Source of the DNA: a virus
Virus record (IMG/VR): IMGVR_UViG_3300027749_000046
Length of the DNA stretch: 64,000 nucleotides
Strand: one strand, 5' to 3'
Shown: piece after piece, positions 32,615 to 64,000 of the stretch
Layout of the letters: every line of letters begins with the position of its first letter
Numbering within the stretch: position 1 is the first letter of the stretch
The notes under the pieces: model-generated
Seen by the model: only the letters and a program-made list of their open reading frames with translations
The model's database searches: none
What the model was told of the DNA's origin: nothing
Program-made: the position numbers and the translations under genes

Positions 32615-32706
32615 TGGTAGGCGTGGAGGGATTCGAACCCCCTCGAGAACGGTAATCTGCCGCTGAAAGGCTTATAAGGCCTCCCTGTGTACCAACACCC
32701 ACGCCT
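32615..32706 (-). tRNA. Atypical tRNA with UAU anticodon (Ile-like acceptor, 4-nt D-loop, long variable arm)
   Basis: AGGCGTG/CACGCCT-A-CCA acceptor; GAGGC-CTTATAA-GCCTT anticodon arm; GGTTCGAATCC T-arm; 92 nt. Confidence 0.8.
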
Positions 32707-32711
32707 ATGAT

Positions 32712-32787
32712 TGGCGATCACCAAGGGACTCGAACCCCTAACCTAGAGAGTAGAAATCTCTTGCTCTTCCAGTTGAGCTAGGTGACC
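32712..32787 (-). tRNA. tRNA-Arg(UCU)
   Basis: Canonical 76-nt cloverleaf; AGAGA-TTTCTAC-TCTCT anticodon arm; CCA encoded. Confidence 0.95.
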
Positions 32788-32794
32788 AATTAAA

Positions 32795-33010
32795 TTATTT
32801 TTTGTCAATAAATGCTTTTAACTCTTCTGCCAATAAAATAATATCCGATTTGCTTGGATATTTCAAAGCATTCATAGCAGCAATTCGATTTGGGGAATTT
32901 GGTTCGGTTGTATCTCTGATACGTTCCATGGCCGCAAAATATTCACCAGTTAACTGGCTTTGCGCATAATGAAGAAGATCAAAACGAATTTCAAATGGTG
33001 TTTTTGTCAT
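32795..33010 (-). CDS. Conserved hypothetical phage protein
   Basis: Likely start MTKTPFEIRFDLL after AGGAG; the longer ORF call would overlap the tmRNA. Confidence 0.7.
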   Translation of the reverse strand: MTKTPFEIRFDLLHYAQSQLTGEYFAAMERIRDTTEPNSPNRIAAMNALKYPSKSDIILLAEELKAFIDKK

Positions 33011-33041
33011 AGTAGTCTCCTGTGTCTGTGTTTGTGTAGTG

Positions 33042-33350
33042 AGTCCGTTATTTGATAGGGTGGAACTCATACCCCAGACTTATCTTTTAAGCAGCAATTT
33101 TCATTGCGGAATAATTAATATTGTCATTATGTGCTTTTTTTGCAGATAACTTATTTATGCAGTCGTCTCGGTCCGCTTTTAACACACCTGTCGATCCTAT
33201 TTCGCCCCCATCAAAGATACATCGGGTGTTCGGAGAAACCTATTACACCATATTTGTTCCGACTATGGAGACCGATGTATCCATGGTGGAGGCGGCGGGT
33301 ACCGCCCCCGCGTCCAGTATGTCTATTCTGCTTTCGTCATCAACAACAGC
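33042..33350 (-). ncRNA. ssrA: tmRNA, circularly permuted two-piece (alphaproteobacterial type)
   Basis: Acceptor piece ends CGCCTCCACCA (33284), then an intervening hairpin, then the coding piece starting GGGGGCGAAATAGGATCGAC (33209); G3-U70 pair; tag ORF ends NDN...IAA* (33087-33143); outer ends approximate. Confidence 0.9.
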
Positions 33351-33356
33351 ATATAT

Positions 33357-33387
33357 TATTTATACCACGTTTTAGATTATTTGTCAA
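33357..33387 (-). promoter_or_regulatory. Composite promoter for the tmRNA/tRNA unit: TTGACA-17-TATAAA merged with late TATAAATA
   Basis: TTGACA at 33382-33387; TATAAATA at 33357-33364. Confidence 0.75.
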
Positions 33388-33808
33388 TAACTAAATCAGG
33401 TCCTACTACATTAATTTTAACTAGTCGAGTAATGTTGAGATCTTTGCCGCCCCAGCGAGTGTACTCACGACCGCCGTCGACAAATACGGAATTGTCTGGA
33501 CTGCCGCGATAGTCGTGACGGAATCGACTGTAGATCACGTCACCGTTGTCAGCTACTATGCCATCGAACGGCTCGGTTGCAGAGTCGGCTTTGCAGATCA
33601 TCACATCTTTATCATAGACATACATGCCGAAGTAGTTAGACATCTCAGGAGGTGGGTGCGGTTGGTAGAACACGGCGGCTGGTTGATAGCTCCACCCGCC
33701 GTCTTTCGTCTTGAGACTGGAGTCACAGACATACTTGGCGCGATACGTCTCCTCGATCTTCTCGATAGACTCTTTAGGAAAGACGATAGACTCATTTAGG
33801 ATCTTCAT
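33377..33808 (-). CDS. Conserved hypothetical protein
   Basis: 143 aa; YSRFRHDY...VDGGREY motif. Confidence 0.75.
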   Translation of the reverse strand: MKILNESIVFPKESIEKIEETYRAKYVCDSSLKTKDGGWSYQPAAVFYQPHPPPEMSNYFGMYVYDKDVMICKADSATEPFDGIVADNGDVIYSRFRHDYRGSPDNSVFVDGGREYTRWGGKDLNITRLVKINVVGPDLVIDK

Positions 33809-43864: not shown

Positions 43865-43940
43865 TGGTGGACCCGGCAGGACTCGAACCTGCAACCAGAC
43901 CGTTATGAGCGGCCGGCTCTAACCATTGAGCTACAGGTCC
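43865..43940 (-). tRNA. tRNA-Ile2(CAU) (lysidine type; could be miscalled as Met)
   Basis: GGACCTGTAGCTCAATGGTTAGAGCCGGCCGCTCATAACGGTCTGG...CCACCA; closely resembles alphaproteobacterial Ile2 sequences as I recall them. Confidence 0.9.
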
Positions 43941-59463: not shown

Positions 59464-60107
59464 GTCTTGCTTTTCTTAGGCTTTGGCGTCATACCAGTAG
59501 CAACATCGTTATACATCTCTCTCGCGTGACTATCTGACATAGTAGACGGTACACCCTGACGAAATCCGTAGTAGTCGTTGTTGCGAACGTGCTCTCTCAT
59601 CTTAGATGCCGACATGCCACCGACACCCTCTGAGTCTGGATCTCTATCACCAGAAGAGACATACTCTATCTTCTTGAAGTTAAAGGGAATATTACCAGAC
59701 TTGTCTGCCTGACCGTTGTAGCGAGATATGAGCTTCTGATACTCAGGCAGTCTGTCGCTGCCTGCCACGAACACTAGGTGATTGTGTCCAGCTTGATGAA
59801 GTCTAGTGAGGTGGTGAATCAATGTCGGCTGATCGGGAGTAGCCGCAGTTATGTTAGCTCCAGGAAATGCTCTTCTTGCGTGCTTTACTTTCTGCTGAGA
59901 AGATAAAGGATTCTTATCTGGGTCTTGAGATCCAGATAAGACTATCTCGTGATGAGCCTTTCGTCTAGCAGCTTCTTCCATGACTTTATTTACTAGGGCC
60001 TCGTGACCAGATGTCGGAGGATTCATCCTACCGAAAGAGAACACCACCGGGTTCATCTTAGGACGACCTACGACACCCTCGGATATAAAGCGAATAAAGC
60101 TCTTCAT
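59460..60107 (-). CDS. HxGH-type (cytidylyltransferase-like) nucleotidyltransferase
   Basis: FGRMNPPTSGH, KNPL, VAGSDR, MSASKMR. Confidence 0.88.
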   Translation of the reverse strand: MKSFIRFISEGVVGRPKMNPVVFSFGRMNPPTSGHEALVNKVMEEAARRKAHHEIVLSGSQDPDKNPLSSQQKVKHARRAFPGANITAATPDQPTLIHHLTRLHQAGHNHLVFVAGSDRLPEYQKLISRYNGQADKSGNIPFNFKKIEYVSSGDRDPDSEGVGGMSASKMREHVRNNDYYGFRQGVPSTMSDSHAREMYNDVATGMTPKPKKSKT

Positions 60108-61375
60108 CAGCTGCCTCCTGCTATTCTACCCATGCCGGCGAGGTTGGCCGCGGCGAATCCCTCTGGGCTCTGGTCGACGAGCTTCTGCATGTTGCCTTGT
60201 GGGTCAACGTGTACGTAACCCTCGTGGCCTGTTGCTCTGTTTCCTATAGACTGACGAGTAGGAGAGTTTGCGTCGAGTGCTCTAACGAGTACGTTCTTTG
60301 CCCTGCTGAGGTGTCCCTCGAGATCGATAGCCTTGCCGAAGTGCTCTCTGTTGTTAGCTACCGACTGGAGCATCTCTCCGTATCTGTCCATTACTCTCTT
60401 CTTAGCAGCTTCAGTCTTAACTTTAGCTGCCTCTTTGGCTGCAGCTTCACTGAGGTGCTTTGTATATCCCTCGACGCTCGGTTTCTCTGGCTTCTCACCG
60501 GGCTGCATAGTGGCGCTTTTTCTAATAACGCCGTTGAGATAAGTCTCTAGTGGTATCTCATGACCGCGCATGGCCTCTAGAGCTTCCGGCTTCATGCTGC
60601 GATAGACTCTCTTGGCGCGTTCCTTGTGATCTTCATACTCACGCTGCATCTCTGGCGTATAGTTATCGGGATTGATCTTTACCCTAGGATCTACATCATG
60701 AACGTCGGGATGCTGCTGGAAGTCCTCGCGATTAACGTCAGGCGTCGCAGTCATGTTCTCTAGGCTGTTGCCCTTGTATCTCGTGTGAGTTACTATACCG
60801 AACTTAGAGCGCAGTGCTTTCTGAGCCTCGCCTGAGTTCTTAGGCAGCTTGTATCTCACCGTGTTTGGCTGGAAAGAAACCTCGTCGCCGTTTGTCTCAA
60901 TATCTTTCTTTCCAGAGTGCATCGCGTCTCCCTGATAGACTTGGTCTGGATAGCGATTACCAATTTTCTTTGGCTTAGGCATGATCTTAGGCAAGTTCTC
61001 AAGTGCGGCCTTGAGCTTCTCAACTAGTCCTGGGGCATGCCCGTGATTTCTCTCGATATCTTCTGGCGTGTAGTTGATCTTTGGATTCTTATTGAAGGCA
61101 GACTTACTGGCTACAAAGAACCTACCTGTCTCTGGGTGATGCCCATAGACTATAGATGGAGCGCCATCGTACTTAGTTGTAAGCGAGTGCCTGCCGCCTC
61201 TTGGCTTCTTACCTTTGACAATCGACTCAACTGCATCTAGTGAGTCAGATGCTCTAGAAACACCCTCATTACCGCCAGTTATAGGCAGGCGATTTAAGTG
61301 CTCTAGGTGCTTTAGCTTTTGACCCTCAGGAGAAGCTTCTTCTTGTTCTAATATAAATCTCTTAAAACTAATCAT
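60107..61375 (-). CDS. Putative ATP-dependent ligase-fold protein (DUF6267-like)
   Basis: HLEHL, TKYDG (KxDG), YQGD, EGYV, KLVD. Confidence 0.65.
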   Translation of the reverse strand: MISFKRFILEQEEASPEGQKLKHLEHLNRLPITGGNEGVSRASDSLDAVESIVKGKKPRGGRHSLTTKYDGAPSIVYGHHPETGRFFVASKSAFNKNPKINYTPEDIERNHGHAPGLVEKLKAALENLPKIMPKPKKIGNRYPDQVYQGDAMHSGKKDIETNGDEVSFQPNTVRYKLPKNSGEAQKALRSKFGIVTHTRYKGNSLENMTATPDVNREDFQQHPDVHDVDPRVKINPDNYTPEMQREYEDHKERAKRVYRSMKPEALEAMRGHEIPLETYLNGVIRKSATMQPGEKPEKPSVEGYTKHLSEAAAKEAAKVKTEAAKKRVMDRYGEMLQSVANNREHFGKAIDLEGHLSRAKNVLVRALDANSPTRQSIGNRATGHEGYVHVDPQGNMQKLVDQSPEGFAAANLAGMGRIAGGS

Positions 61376-62544
61376 CTACCTAGACTTTCTTCATCTGAAC
61401 TAAATTGAGAACCGCCGTGCATTCCTGAAGAAGGTAGCTTTACTTTATTTTTAGTGGGAAGCACCGATGACTTATTAACAACTGGCTTTCTTGTTAGATA
61501 AGGCGCTTGAGTAGTAGAGTTAAATCCCTTTGTAGGGCCGCTCCCCTTTTTAATTCCCTGTGTTAACACGGGAGTAAAGTCAGACTCACCTTTTCTTCTA
61601 CCTTCTATCTTTACACTAATACCTCCGCTATGTGGAGCAGTCCTGAGCTCTTCATAATCATTGAGAGTATTGCGTGCGTCTTGAACGTCATTCATGTGAT
61701 GAGATAAATCTACACCATTTCTTCCAACTTGGCCGTGATATCTAAAATGCTGAAAGGTAGTCTTAGGTGCAACGATATCATTAACATAATTTTTGAGATC
61801 ATTAGTATTCTTTTTTGCAAGACTCTTTGTGAGAGCACCAGCTACGTTTCTTTGAACTTCACCAGCAGACTTTTCAGCGTCAGCGGCTGCTTGTCTTTCT
61901 TTAGGATTCTGACTGTCTCTAAATCTCTTAAAGGTATCATGACTGTCGATACCAAGCTCTTTAAGACGCTTTGCGTGTCTATCTCTGTGGCTAACCAGAT
62001 CTGATTCATTTGCTCCGGACATTCTGGCTAGTGTTTCAAATCCATTATTTCTAAGATTAGGTGTCTTCATAGTACCGTATTTTAAGCTTATACCTACAGG
62101 TCCCTTGTTAGTCTGAAGCATAACATCGGCATCACTGTTTGTATCTTTCTTGCCGGTAAAGCTCTCGTGATCTGAAGGCTGAGAAGTCCAAGCACCGTGA
62201 TGAATGGTATGATGTCCAGCTGCAGCAAGTTGCTGTCTTATATTGGCCGCGGCCTGTGCAGAATGCTTTGCGATCTGATCATACATACCAGGATATCTTG
62301 CATCTAATTCTGTCTTGATCTTATCGTGGATATCGCTTGGTGTCTTGCCCTCTTCATCTCTGAAATGCTGCAGCATTTCATTAGGTCCACCGTGTTTTGG
62401 GTGAGTTCCACTGTGGAGATGCGATCCAGTTAAGATCTCAAATAGCTTACCTTTAGCATCGTTTAAGTTAAAACTTTTCTCTTTTTCTTTCTTTGGCTTT
62501 ATTACTCTTGCCTCAGATAGAATAAATTGCTTAAATGGTATCAT
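61372..62544 (-). CDS. Putative PD-(D/E)XK-like nuclease with capsid-targeting-like N-terminus
   Basis: GKLFE...DADVML...GISLK. Confidence 0.55.
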   Translation of the reverse strand: MIPFKQFILSEARVIKPKKEKEKSFNLNDAKGKLFEILTGSHLHSGTHPKHGGPNEMLQHFRDEEGKTPSDIHDKIKTELDARYPGMYDQIAKHSAQAAANIRQQLAAAGHHTIHHGAWTSQPSDHESFTGKKDTNSDADVMLQTNKGPVGISLKYGTMKTPNLRNNGFETLARMSGANESDLVSHRDRHAKRLKELGIDSHDTFKRFRDSQNPKERQAAADAEKSAGEVQRNVAGALTKSLAKKNTNDLKNYVNDIVAPKTTFQHFRYHGQVGRNGVDLSHHMNDVQDARNTLNDYEELRTAPHSGGISVKIEGRRKGESDFTPVLTQGIKKGSGPTKGFNSTTQAPYLTRKPVVNKSSVLPTKNKVKLPSSGMHGGSQFSSDEESLGR

Positions 62545-62578
62545 GTCGTAAGCCTCATGGAAGTTAGATTGTTCTCAA

Positions 62579-62586
62579 TATTTATA
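62579..62586 (-). promoter_or_regulatory. T4-type late promoter TATAAATA
   Basis: Exact consensus, upstream of the 62544 operon. Confidence 0.8.
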
Positions 62587-62590
62587 TAAT

Positions 62591-62620
62591 AAAAAAGGGA
62601 AGCCCCTAAGAGCTTCCCTT
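62591..62620 (-). terminator. Intrinsic terminator
   Basis: GGGAAGCTC-TTAG-GGGCTTCCC-TTTTTT. Confidence 0.85.
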
Positions 62621-62740
62621 TACGACGTGGACAGGAGGAACCCCACCTACCGTATACTGGCGACCTGTCAATTCCAATCCTCGCGGCTTGCCTCTTGTGC
62701 TGCAGGCACAAACGCGTCGAAGTATTCACAAGATATGTGC
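62621..62740 (-). ncRNA. Candidate small structured RNA (own late promoter and terminator)
   Basis: Multi-stem fold: CGACG/CGTCG, TTGTGC/GCACAA, GACAGG/CCTGTC; no credible ORF. Confidence 0.6.
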
Positions 62741-62745
62741 ATACA

Positions 62746-62955
62746 TTATTTATAACCAGAAACAGTATTTTCAAACTTTTCTACAAATATTTTTTTCAAT
62801 ACAAAAGACGGAGTCCAGCCATCAAAAGCCCCACCTAGATTCAAGAAGCGACAGCGTGTTTTCATTTCTTTTTCTACACCAAAGGCAACGATATGGTCCG
62901 TTGACTTCTCGACGATAGCGTACGTGTTCTTCTTTTGAATAACTTTATAGTTCAT
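62746..62955 (-). CDS. Conserved small protein downstream of gp41
   Basis: LNLGGAFDGWTPSF motif; TAATG-coupled to gp41. Confidence 0.75.
   Translation of the reverse strand: MNYKVIQKKNTYAIVEKSTDHIVAFGVEKEMKTRCRFLNLGGAFDGWTPSFVLKKIFVEKFENTVSGYK
62747..62754 (-). promoter_or_regulatory. T4-type late promoter TATAAATA
   Basis: Exact consensus, overlapping the stop of 62746..62955. Confidence 0.75.
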
Positions 62956-64000
62956 TACTTAAACCCCGCAAATTTAGCTTTGTCAAACTTCTTACCCTTC
63001 TTGCCTCTCTCTTTATCCTCGTCGCCGAAACCGGTAGAGTCAAATACCGGGCCGTCTAGAAGATCAGACTGAGAAGACTGCTCTGTGTCGTACAGTCTCA
63101 TCCTAGACCTGTCGATACCAATCACGAACCTCCTGTTCATTGCCGGATCATTATAGCGATTCTTGAGCTGCTTTACCATGAGCTGATTTAAGCCCTGCAG
63201 CTCTTCAGTGGAGATAAGTGCGAACATGAAGTCGGCCGTTGCCGGAAGACCAAATGACTCGGATGTGTCCTCGAGACCGACATCAGAGCTGGAGTAGCCG
63301 GTACGAGTAGTCTGAGTTGCAGACATAATCGGAACGTTGAACTCGACGGCTAGGCCGCGGAGCTCCTCGGCGATGGCCTTGATGTAGGTGTACGAGTTTA
63401 CGTTAGCACTGAACTTAAGTCGAGAAGACATGCAGATATTAAGGTAGTCGATATAGATAATATCCGGCGTGAAGTTCTTCTTGAGCTTGAGCTCGTTGAG
63501 TAGATGCCTGAAGTTGGCAGAGCCAGCTGAGGCAGTTGGGTACTCCTTGATGATCAGCTTGCCGACCGTCTTAGACCTTACCTTCTCTACTTTCTTGTCG
63601 TATAGATCCCTTGGTAGCAGCGAGAGCTCGTCCATCGTCACATTGAGGAGGTTTGCGTCAATACGCTTGGCGATCTCCTCCTCGGCCATTTCCATAGTGA
63701 TGTAGAGCACTCGCTGCCCCTTGGTTAGGTTACCCGCAGCGCAGTGGCCCATGAAGAGCGACTTGCCGACGCCAGTGCCCGCGAGTGCAATGTTGAGCGT
63801 CTTGTTGGGTAACCCGCCGTTCGTGATCTGATTGAAGTAATCAAGATCGAACGGAACTCTGTTTAGTTTTTGGTGGTAGAACTCATATCGACTATCGGCG
63901 TCTTCTAGGAAGTCGTGACCGATATGAGTGTCGAAGCTGACGCCGAGTGCGTCGCTCAAGATCTGCGGGATAGCTCCAGCAGACTGCTTTCCAGTCTTGT
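62955..64000 (-). CDS. gp41: Replicative DNA helicase gp41 (partial; 5' end outside the window)
   Basis: AGTGVGKS, YITMEMAEE, IDYLNIC, SATQTTR, DTSESFGLPATAD, QLKNRY. Confidence 0.97.
   Translation of the reverse strand, partial: KTGKQSAGAIPQILSDALGVSFDTHIGHDFLEDADSRYEFYHQKLNRVPFDLDYFNQITNGGLPNKTLNIALAGTGVGKSLFMGHCAAGNLTKGQRVLYITMEMAEEEIAKRIDANLLNVTMDELSLLPRDLYDKKVEKVRSKTVGKLIIKEYPTASAGSANFRHLLNELKLKKNFTPDIIYIDYLNICMSSRLKFSANVNSYTYIKAIAEELRGLAVEFNVPIMSATQTTRTGYSSSDVGLEDTSESFGLPATADFMFALISTEELQGLNQLMVKQLKNRYNDPAMNRRFVIGIDRSRMRLYDTEQSSQSDLLDGPVFDSTGFGDEDKERGKKGKKFDKAKFAGFK

Follow-up and report, generated by a model that had tools for sequence, protein, structure and literature searches.

What is encoded between the helicase gene gp41, with the small open reading frame (ORF) that follows it, and the next operon in the phage sequence IMGVR_UViG_3300027749_000046? 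The sequence was analysed as a stretch of 64,000 nt (the window, to which all coordinates refer unless a locus is named), and the unit in question is read on its minus strand. An earlier note had described this interval as a self-contained unit that produces a late small RNA of unrecognised class, consisting of an exact promoter octamer, about 120 nt of GC-richer sequence and a strong terminator, and followed by a second octamer for the next operon. Each of these elements was recovered: the octamer is TATAAATA (62747-62754), the insert of ~125 nt has a G+C content of 0.56 at 62600-62699 compared with 0.30-0.34 in the flanks, and a 12-bp intrinsic terminator with a T run precedes the second TATAAATA (Table 1). 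Comparison with relatives strongly supports the insert as a member of an apparently new family of non-coding RNA in phages, with a covariation-backed structure, a defined strand and a non-coding character; judging from its sequence matches, this conserved family is one of uncultured T4-like phages.

The fold suggested for the insert was multibranched, with three named helices: a closing stem CGACG/CGTCG, a hairpin with a CTGCA loop, and a GACAGG/CCTGTC stem that encloses GGTGGGGTTCC. The single sequence was indecisive between folds, as its thermodynamic minimum free energy structure is a different one (-51.5 kcal/mol, z = -3.08) and the suggested fold, at -48.1 kcal/mol, lies 3.4 kcal/mol higher, and relatives were therefore examined. 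Their covariation backs the suggested fold, and all three helices are present, within a four-way junction that 93 distinct sequences share. The closing stem corresponds to five pairs of helix P1 (62719-62715 with 62627-62623 in the window), which the family extends to seven pairs with one C-A mismatch.

No cultured phage is close to the window at the DNA level, and the best gp41 matches among cultured phages are cyanomyoviruses with ~70% protein identity. A scan of IMG/VR with a gp41 fragment gave 80 loci of 66-85% identity, and nhmmer searches with the intergenic region, as well as blastn, showed about 19 of these 80 to have a homologous element behind gp41, in three cases on the opposite strand. 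A pattern built from three conserved segments (GGCA, GGAA and the terminal loop L5 described below) matched at least 120 places in IMG/VR; most family members were taken among the pattern matches listed, so that 93 is a lower bound on the number of distinct sequences. The covariance model R1 has a single hit in the window (66.9 bits), matches 30 of the 81 gp41-anchored sources at E <= 1e-9, and overall matches 95 sequences (93 distinct) in 100 sources, with exactly one copy in a 99%-complete genome of 164 kb. Members share a common plan in which a promoter motif and a short leader are followed by P1, a 2-nt linker, helix P2, joining strand J2/3, hairpin P3, joining strand J3/4, helix P4, a bulge or insertion, and the P5 hairpin with its loop L5; the 3′ halves of P4 and P1 come next and, past a short spacer, the terminator.

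The variable stems were misplaced in the MAFFT alignments A1-A3, and RNAalifold run on A1 recovered only P4 and P5; the consensus structure was for this reason set by hand, with P3 omitted, and R1 was built on it. In the resulting alignment A4, 91.4% of the cells in modelled pairs can pair; the value falls to 66% with partners shuffled and to 33-51% with the 3′ partners slid by 1-3 columns, and none of 500 shuffles reached any of the five covariation measures used. The earlier note had proposed looking for covariation in the regions downstream of gp41 in related phages, and this comparison revealed compensatory, two-sided changes in all 21 modelled pairs. Pairing is retained in >99% of the cells of P4 and P5 while their sequences vary freely, and a simple anchor-based parse of the first 23 sequences found P4 paired at 6/6 positions in each, with 10 different stem sequences. 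When mutual information with average product correction (APC) was calculated for all column pairs, 13 of the 15 highest values fell on modelled pairs, with the other two involving the P3 region, including a signal between columns 66 and 90, which flank it. P3 itself is represented by 73 distinct segments, and ~80% of these have a predicted stem of at least 3 bp, with loops that include GNRA and UUCG.

The strand and the nature of the element follow from the kinds of substitution seen. G-U pairs number 120 and A-C pairs 29, which places the structure on the strand that bears the promoter and terminator, and together with stop codons in each sense frame in 74-80% of the members and core lengths that are not multiples of three, this argues for an RNA rather than a peptide gene or a DNA site. 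A 77-aa ORF with a TTG start (62541-62774) formally spans the region, which could suggest a small protein gene, and an origin, a recombination site or a packaging signal might likewise be preserved at the DNA level. However, the G-U excess is a strand-specific signature of RNA, the 77-aa ORF has no PHROG match, insertions and deletions do not come in threes, most members carry stops in all frames, and the compensatory changes preserve pairing and not codons, leaving next to no chance that the element is a DNA-level site or a protein gene. The conserved RNA structure on the minus strand is almost certainly real.

The element was also sought outside the gp41-anchored loci. A pattern scan of one genome per species for 185,579 prokaryote species gave 26 places with one true member, on a 1.7-kb contig in a metagenome-assembled genome, which is probably a mis-binned fragment of phage DNA, and the scan thus suggests that the family is restricted to phages. 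Searching 50,697 phage records with the RNA by blastn gave no real match, and R1 had no match in T4 or in the cultured marine T4-like phages P-TIM68, S-CREM1, AG-345-L05 and HTVC008M.

A promoter motif and a terminator accompany the structured core in essentially all members. In 93/93 members P1 is preceded by a TAAATA motif that ends at a distance of 5-29 nt, mostly 8-12 nt, and in most cases is the exact TATAAATA; the leader between motif and P1 measures 26-27 nt in the window and in loci L001 and L009, compared with 8-12 nt elsewhere. The motif fits the pattern of a T4-type late unit, in which a -10 element of the TATAAATA type stands a few nt before the start and a -35 element is lacking. 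Use of such late promoters by a gp55-type factor is established for T4 and the cyanomyoviruses, and in the window TATAAATA occurs 9 times against 3.6 expected, with 8/9 on the minus (gene) strand, which is consistent with late-promoter use throughout the window. Behind the core, a run of five T residues lies within 110 nt after P1 in 85/93 members, and in the 79 members that could be scored the terminator hairpin averages -18 kcal/mol and begins a median of 10 nt beyond P1.

In one subclade (L063, L074, L080, L128, L142, L136 and others) the entire unit, with its promoter and terminator, has the reverse orientation and is convergent with p69, the 69-aa ORF, which keeps its place after gp41. 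These inverted copies (e.g. L063:4706-4823, minus strand) share the terminator region with p69, and have a longer core (116-124 nt) in which P3 is long and P4 contains an inserted hairpin. As the RNA is located on the strand opposite gp41 and p69 in this subclade, it is not the 3′ untranslated region (3′ UTR) of the helicase operon, and as no gene lies behind the terminator there, it is not a leader either. One might otherwise take the element for a 3′ UTR, insulator or stabiliser of the gp41-p69 operon, with TATAAATA incidental, since it directly follows p69 in 65 of 94 matches and its terminator would also stop gp41 transcripts. Besides the inversion, this reading has to contend with the TAAATA motif at a fixed short distance in 93/93 members, with loop and junction sequences whose invariance a terminator does not need, and with locus L078, which retains the promoter and terminator without the RNA body, and we regard it as highly improbable.

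A cis-acting riboswitch or attenuator would use the junction as aptamer and the terminator as expression platform, and would thereby control whether transcription from the first late promoter continues into the late cassette that follows. The conserved junction is aptamer-like, the terminator is close by, and 19 of 64 downstream ORFs have no recognisable TAAATA of their own. Nevertheless, in the other 45/64 such a motif lies between the terminator and the next same-strand ORF, the downstream genes are unrelated between members, and the inverted units point their terminator at the 3′ end of p69, where there is no gene to regulate. The core pairs with its own terminator arm at -8.2 kcal/mol and with the arms of other members at -8.5 kcal/mol (p = 0.43 and 0.32), and this lack of excess complementarity gives no sign of an expression platform; there is also no match to an Rfam riboswitch. 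Such a cis-regulatory role is very unlikely, and it is this reading and the 3′ UTR that the data oppose most clearly. From the promoter and terminator motifs and the inversion, the element is very probably an autonomous late transcription unit. The proposal of a self-contained late small RNA of an unnamed class thereby gains support, from covariation, from the accompanying promoter and terminator, from the inversion, and from the lack of an Rfam match described below.

Within the core, three single-stranded segments hardly vary. The L5 sequence UGGGGUU is identical in 93/93 members, and the pair closing P5 is free to change (CG 46, AU 36, UA 8, GC 2), from which it follows that the loop and not the hairpin is held constant. 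In J2/3, the GGC is present in 93/93 members and the flanking G55 and A60 in 92/93 each, while in J3/4 G97, A99 and A100 are conserved in 93/93 and G98 in 91/93. The loop was also exact in all 30 gp41-anchored hits, which were gathered without selection on L5 and which have the same J2/3 conservation, and a pattern restricted to J2/3 and J3/4 returned 38 distinct true members, all with exact L5; 28 other matches were unrelated. Local contacts are possible between the UG of L5 and the CA of J2/3, and between the GUU of L5 and the AAU of J3/4, where invariance of the positions leaves no covariation to be seen. Many viral contigs (L232-L330; e.g. L234, L239, L243, L251 and L255) matched the L5-free pattern through another recurrent sequence, ~150 nt long and unrelated to the family, which opens with TCAACTTGTTTAAATGTCAGTGCGAATATAAGGG and runs on through GAGAGGCAAG.

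We propose that this locus of uncultured T4-like phages is a single-copy gene whose product is a small non-coding RNA, stable and structured. The phage late machinery would start transcription at the TATAAATA that overlaps the end of p69, and transcription would end at the intrinsic terminator ~150 nt further on, giving an RNA of ~115-150 nt in most relatives. This RNA would fold into a four-way junction closed by P1, with P2 and the variable P3 as hairpins, P4 tipped by P5 and L5, and the purine-rich strands J2/3 and J3/4 at the junction. It may act in trans and not on a neighbouring gene, with L5, J2/3 and J3/4 combining into a single surface or pocket by which a specific partner would be recognised and bound during late infection; the partner would most probably be a phage or host protein, less probably a small molecule, with the RNA as scaffold, cofactor or decoy. 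Taken as a whole, a late, stable, trans-acting structured RNA with a partner-binding core is an explanation that we consider reasonably probable, and for binding of a partner in trans through the invariant core we see a roughly even chance.

The same invariant loop could instead serve as the seed of a base-pairing small RNA, in which the fold presents UGGGGUU or the joining strands to phage or host RNA and so alters, late in infection, how the target is translated or how stable it is. In standing alone and ending in an intrinsic terminator and U tail, the unit resembles many bacterial small RNAs, and an invariant single-stranded 7-mer is what such pairing would use. However, the complement AACCCCA is not enriched in the window, with 3 sites (one being the RNA gene) against 2.65 expected, nor in 706 kb of family loci, where its only recurring context is the antisense strand of the gp41 coding sequence, and three separate invariant segments in a four-way junction exceed the needs of a seed; we consider this unlikely.

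Self-cleaving ribozymes are common in phage genomes, and a small, complex junction with invariant nucleotides and no cis-regulatory logic would also suit a new class of self-cleaving or otherwise catalytic RNA with the junction and L5 as active site. On the other side, hammerhead, twister, twister-sister, pistol, hatchet and HDV-like (hepatitis delta virus) models had no match, either at E <= 10 in the window region or at E <= 5 in 14 other members, in agreement with the earlier remark that no ribozyme core could be recognised, and around a unit that stands alone there is no RNA in obvious need of processing. A catalytic role is therefore quite unlikely.

L5 contains UGGGGU, the classic sequence for the formation of four-stranded RNA G-quadruplexes. 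The loop might thus join copies of the RNA into a homo-oligomer that acts as scaffold or cofactor for an adjacent cassette of capsid-targeted enzymes, or that is packaged with the cassette, although we regard such a structural or assembly RNA as decidedly improbable. If this were true, the family would represent a T4-type counterpart to the phi29 pRNA and the recently described multimeric ornate RNAs.

Several points weigh against the proposed late, trans-acting RNA with a partner-binding core. The late role of the promoter in this clade is assumed from what is known of T4 and cyanophages. Two lake-water metatranscriptomes (from two studies, both 2017), the only public RNA runs found to contain the phage, match small shares of the stretch (0.18 and 0.05), with six short contigs at 60000-64000, four at 100% and two at >=99% identity, at depths of 2-6; these place the phage in fresh water, but no transcript of the RNA was sighted, the contigs being few, of low depth and absent over 62591-62745, and so uninformative about the RNA. 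Relatives moreover show three stages of loss: in L078 (4220-4300) a gap of only ~20 nt separates TATAAATA from the terminator, with nothing left of the RNA body, in L028 (4186-4240) the whole unit is absent, and L005 (2475-2565) has a degenerate copy (24 bits) from which both GGCA and the UGGGGUU loop have been lost, so that the RNA is dispensable in those lineages. The usual neighbour p69 also occurs without the RNA in ~13 loci, and is thus not its obligate partner. Two features of the procedure point in the same direction. A4 was fitted to R1, which favours pairing, a bias from which the anchor-based parse of P4 and the mutual information over all columns are free; and most members were selected by the pattern that fixes GGCA, GGAA and L5, so that selection accounts for part of the constancy of J2/3 and J3/4.

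Table 1. Layout of the RNA gene and its surroundings at the end of the window.
Feature	Position	Strand	Remarks
gp41, DnaB-type helicase, 3′ part	62955-63998	-	Pfam DnaB_C
p69, 69-aa ORF	62746-62955	-	Motif LN-x-GGGFDGWTP-x-F; usual neighbour of the RNA gene
TATAAATA, T4-type late promoter motif of the RNA gene	62754..62747	-	Exact octamer; overlaps last two codons and stop of p69
5′ leader	62741..62720	-	Putative start near 62741, from usual T4 spacing
P1 5′ strand CGACGCG	62719-62713	-	All 7 helix pairs with two-sided changes; 89.7% of cells paired
P2 hairpin TGTGC-CTGCA-GCACA	62710-62696	-	5/5 pairs with two-sided changes; among top mutual information pairs
J2/3 joining strand AGAGGCAAG	62687-62695	-	Family consensus A-G-N-G-G-C-A-M-R
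P3 CC-GCGA-GG	62679-62686	-	2 bp and GNRA loop in the window; hairpin variable across the family
J3/4 joining strand ATTGGAATT	62670-62678	-	Family consensus GGAAUA
P4 5′ strand GACAGG	62669-62664	-	99.3% of cells paired
Insertion on 5′ side between P4 and P5	62649-62663	-	4-6-nt A-rich bulge in most members; small hairpin in some
P5 mini-hairpin AGG-UGGGGUU-CCU	62636-62648	-	3 bp; loop L5 at 62639-62645
P4 3′ strand CCTGTC	62635-62630	-	Covariation alignment
P1 3′ strand CACGTCG	62629-62623	-	Covariation alignment
Intrinsic terminator	62621..62594, T run to 62591	-	12-bp stem, 4-nt loop
Second TATAAATA, putative late promoter of the downstream cassette	62586..62579	-	Outside the RNA; 34 nt before ATG (62544)
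Next gene, 390 aa	ATG at 62544	-	Downstream of second TATAAATA

All genes at the end of the window that bears the RNA are on the minus strand. The p69 gene adjoins the RNA in 77 of 94 matches, in tandem upstream in 65 and convergent in 12. Its products form a family of 55-90 aa with the motif LN-x-GGGFDGWTP-x-F invariant, and are always encoded after gp41 (e.g. L007:4035-4235, L063:4481-4669); they had no match in Pfam, PHROG or cultured phages, and a word-based homologue search gave only 5 relatives. An AlphaFold model of p69 (predicted local distance difference test, pLDDT, 82) has three strands and a helix, with no significant match in the PDB (Foldseek E >= 0.3; best VIA Z 3.8). An AP2 or integrase N-terminal DNA-binding fold was considered for p69 and set aside, as the likeness is weak and non-significant (Z 2.4-3.3) and does not constitute evidence. 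We treat the adjacency of p69 and RNA as synteny, and a functional link between the two is possible.

Downstream of the RNA, 19 of 64 ORFs start with a leader like that of internal proteins (M-x-x-F-x-x-F/Y/L...). A search of viral contigs for relatives of the 390-aa protein in the window found none. A DUF6267 ligase-like cassette is located within 3 kb in 7/11 RNA-bearing loci with full flanks compared with 4/18 RNA-less loci (Fisher p = 0.048), a difference that is confounded by phylogeny, and the link of this cassette to the RNA is therefore not relied on. Elsewhere, the window encodes an alphaproteobacterial-type two-piece (permuted) transfer-messenger RNA (tmRNA, 94 bits) and three tRNAs (Ile-TAT, Arg-TCT and Met-CAT), with coordinates of 32996-33391, 32615-32787 and 43865-43940 on the minus strand for the tmRNA and tRNA calls; one TATAAATA (33364-33357) falls within the tmRNA call. 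The two-piece form is known from pelagimyophages and from Melnitz, a phage of OM43 (PMC9004378).

With its four-way junction, its three single-stranded segments that vary little or not at all, and its stems that stay paired while their sequences change freely, the family looks like a functional RNA built around a defined three-dimensional core. We know of very few stand-alone structured phage RNAs beyond tRNAs and tmRNAs, and those that are understood (pRNA, antitoxin RNAs, anti-CRISPR RNAs) each revealed a new mechanism. The family appears to represent an autonomous late gene that is common in abundant, uncultured T4-like phages of fresh and marine waters. Its core of ~100 nt is a well-defined and easily synthesised target, albeit one with no host in culture, and it may provide a handle on how T4-type phages use RNA late in infection, a question open since the discovery of the T4 RNAs rnaC and rnaD.

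How does the family compare with RNAs that are already known? An Rfam/Infernal search, another check that the earlier note had put forward, matched no known family, with 6S, SRP and IMES RNAs among those covered: Rfam 15 at gathering thresholds had no match at the RNA locus of the window, at E <= 10 the RNA region gave only terminator-driven noise (sbrA, 22 bits against a threshold of 45), and at E <= 5 no family recurred over the RNA in 14 other members. Our literature searches found no published description of the family, and the core motif was encountered only in tRNA-Tyr sequences that match by chance. Like the tRNA cloverleaf, the RNA has a four-way junction in which P1 is followed by a 2-nt linker and three arms, the last of which leads directly into the 3′ strand of P1, as well as a terminal loop of 7 nt. 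It differs from tRNA in its joining strands of 9 nt and 6-10 nt, and in having no T-loop, anticodon-loop signature or CCA end; the absence of tRNA features stated earlier was borne out by ARAGORN, which found the three tRNAs and the tmRNA of the window and nothing at the RNA locus, and by Rfam, which gave no tRNA there.

Among RNAs of related phages, the structured manA and wcaG motifs are found nearly only in marine metagenomes and T4-like phages; their sites are the 5′ UTRs of metabolic genes, and a cis-regulatory role is ascribed to them (Weinberg et al. 2010, PMC2864571). Both are in Rfam and do not match the family described here, which appears as an autonomous unit. A catalogue drawn, like the present family, from IMG/VR contigs (Fremin et al. 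2023, PMC10690425) contains 8,495 candidates with covariation, of which 1,241 have terminators; its text describes no late-promoter RNA beside gp41, and the family may be among its unnamed candidates.

The phi29 pRNA resembles the family RNA in being a phage-encoded, stand-alone structured RNA of ~120-170 nt. The pRNA acts in trans in the machine that assembles the virion, and multimerises through loop contacts. It differs in that it belongs to phi29-like podoviruses and is transcribed from an early promoter, and Rfam gave no match between the two; to our knowledge, T4-type packaging motors need no RNA, and an assembly role for the family RNA is speculation by analogy. Closer to T4-like phages, rnaC and rnaD of T4 are stable, non-coding RNAs of 139 and 119 nt whose function is still unknown. 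They are encoded ~2.5 kb from the internal-protein gene ipI (L231: T4 70908-71171 and 73591-73878), and the family RNA often lies just upstream of genes with internal-protein-like leaders, which is a loose positional parallel. R1 had no match in the whole T4 genome at E <= 10, no common motif was apparent on reading the sequences, and rnaC ends in a tRNA-like T arm. Furthermore, rnaC and rnaD are processed out of the transcript of a tRNA cluster, in contrast to the family RNA, which has a putative late promoter and a terminator of its own.

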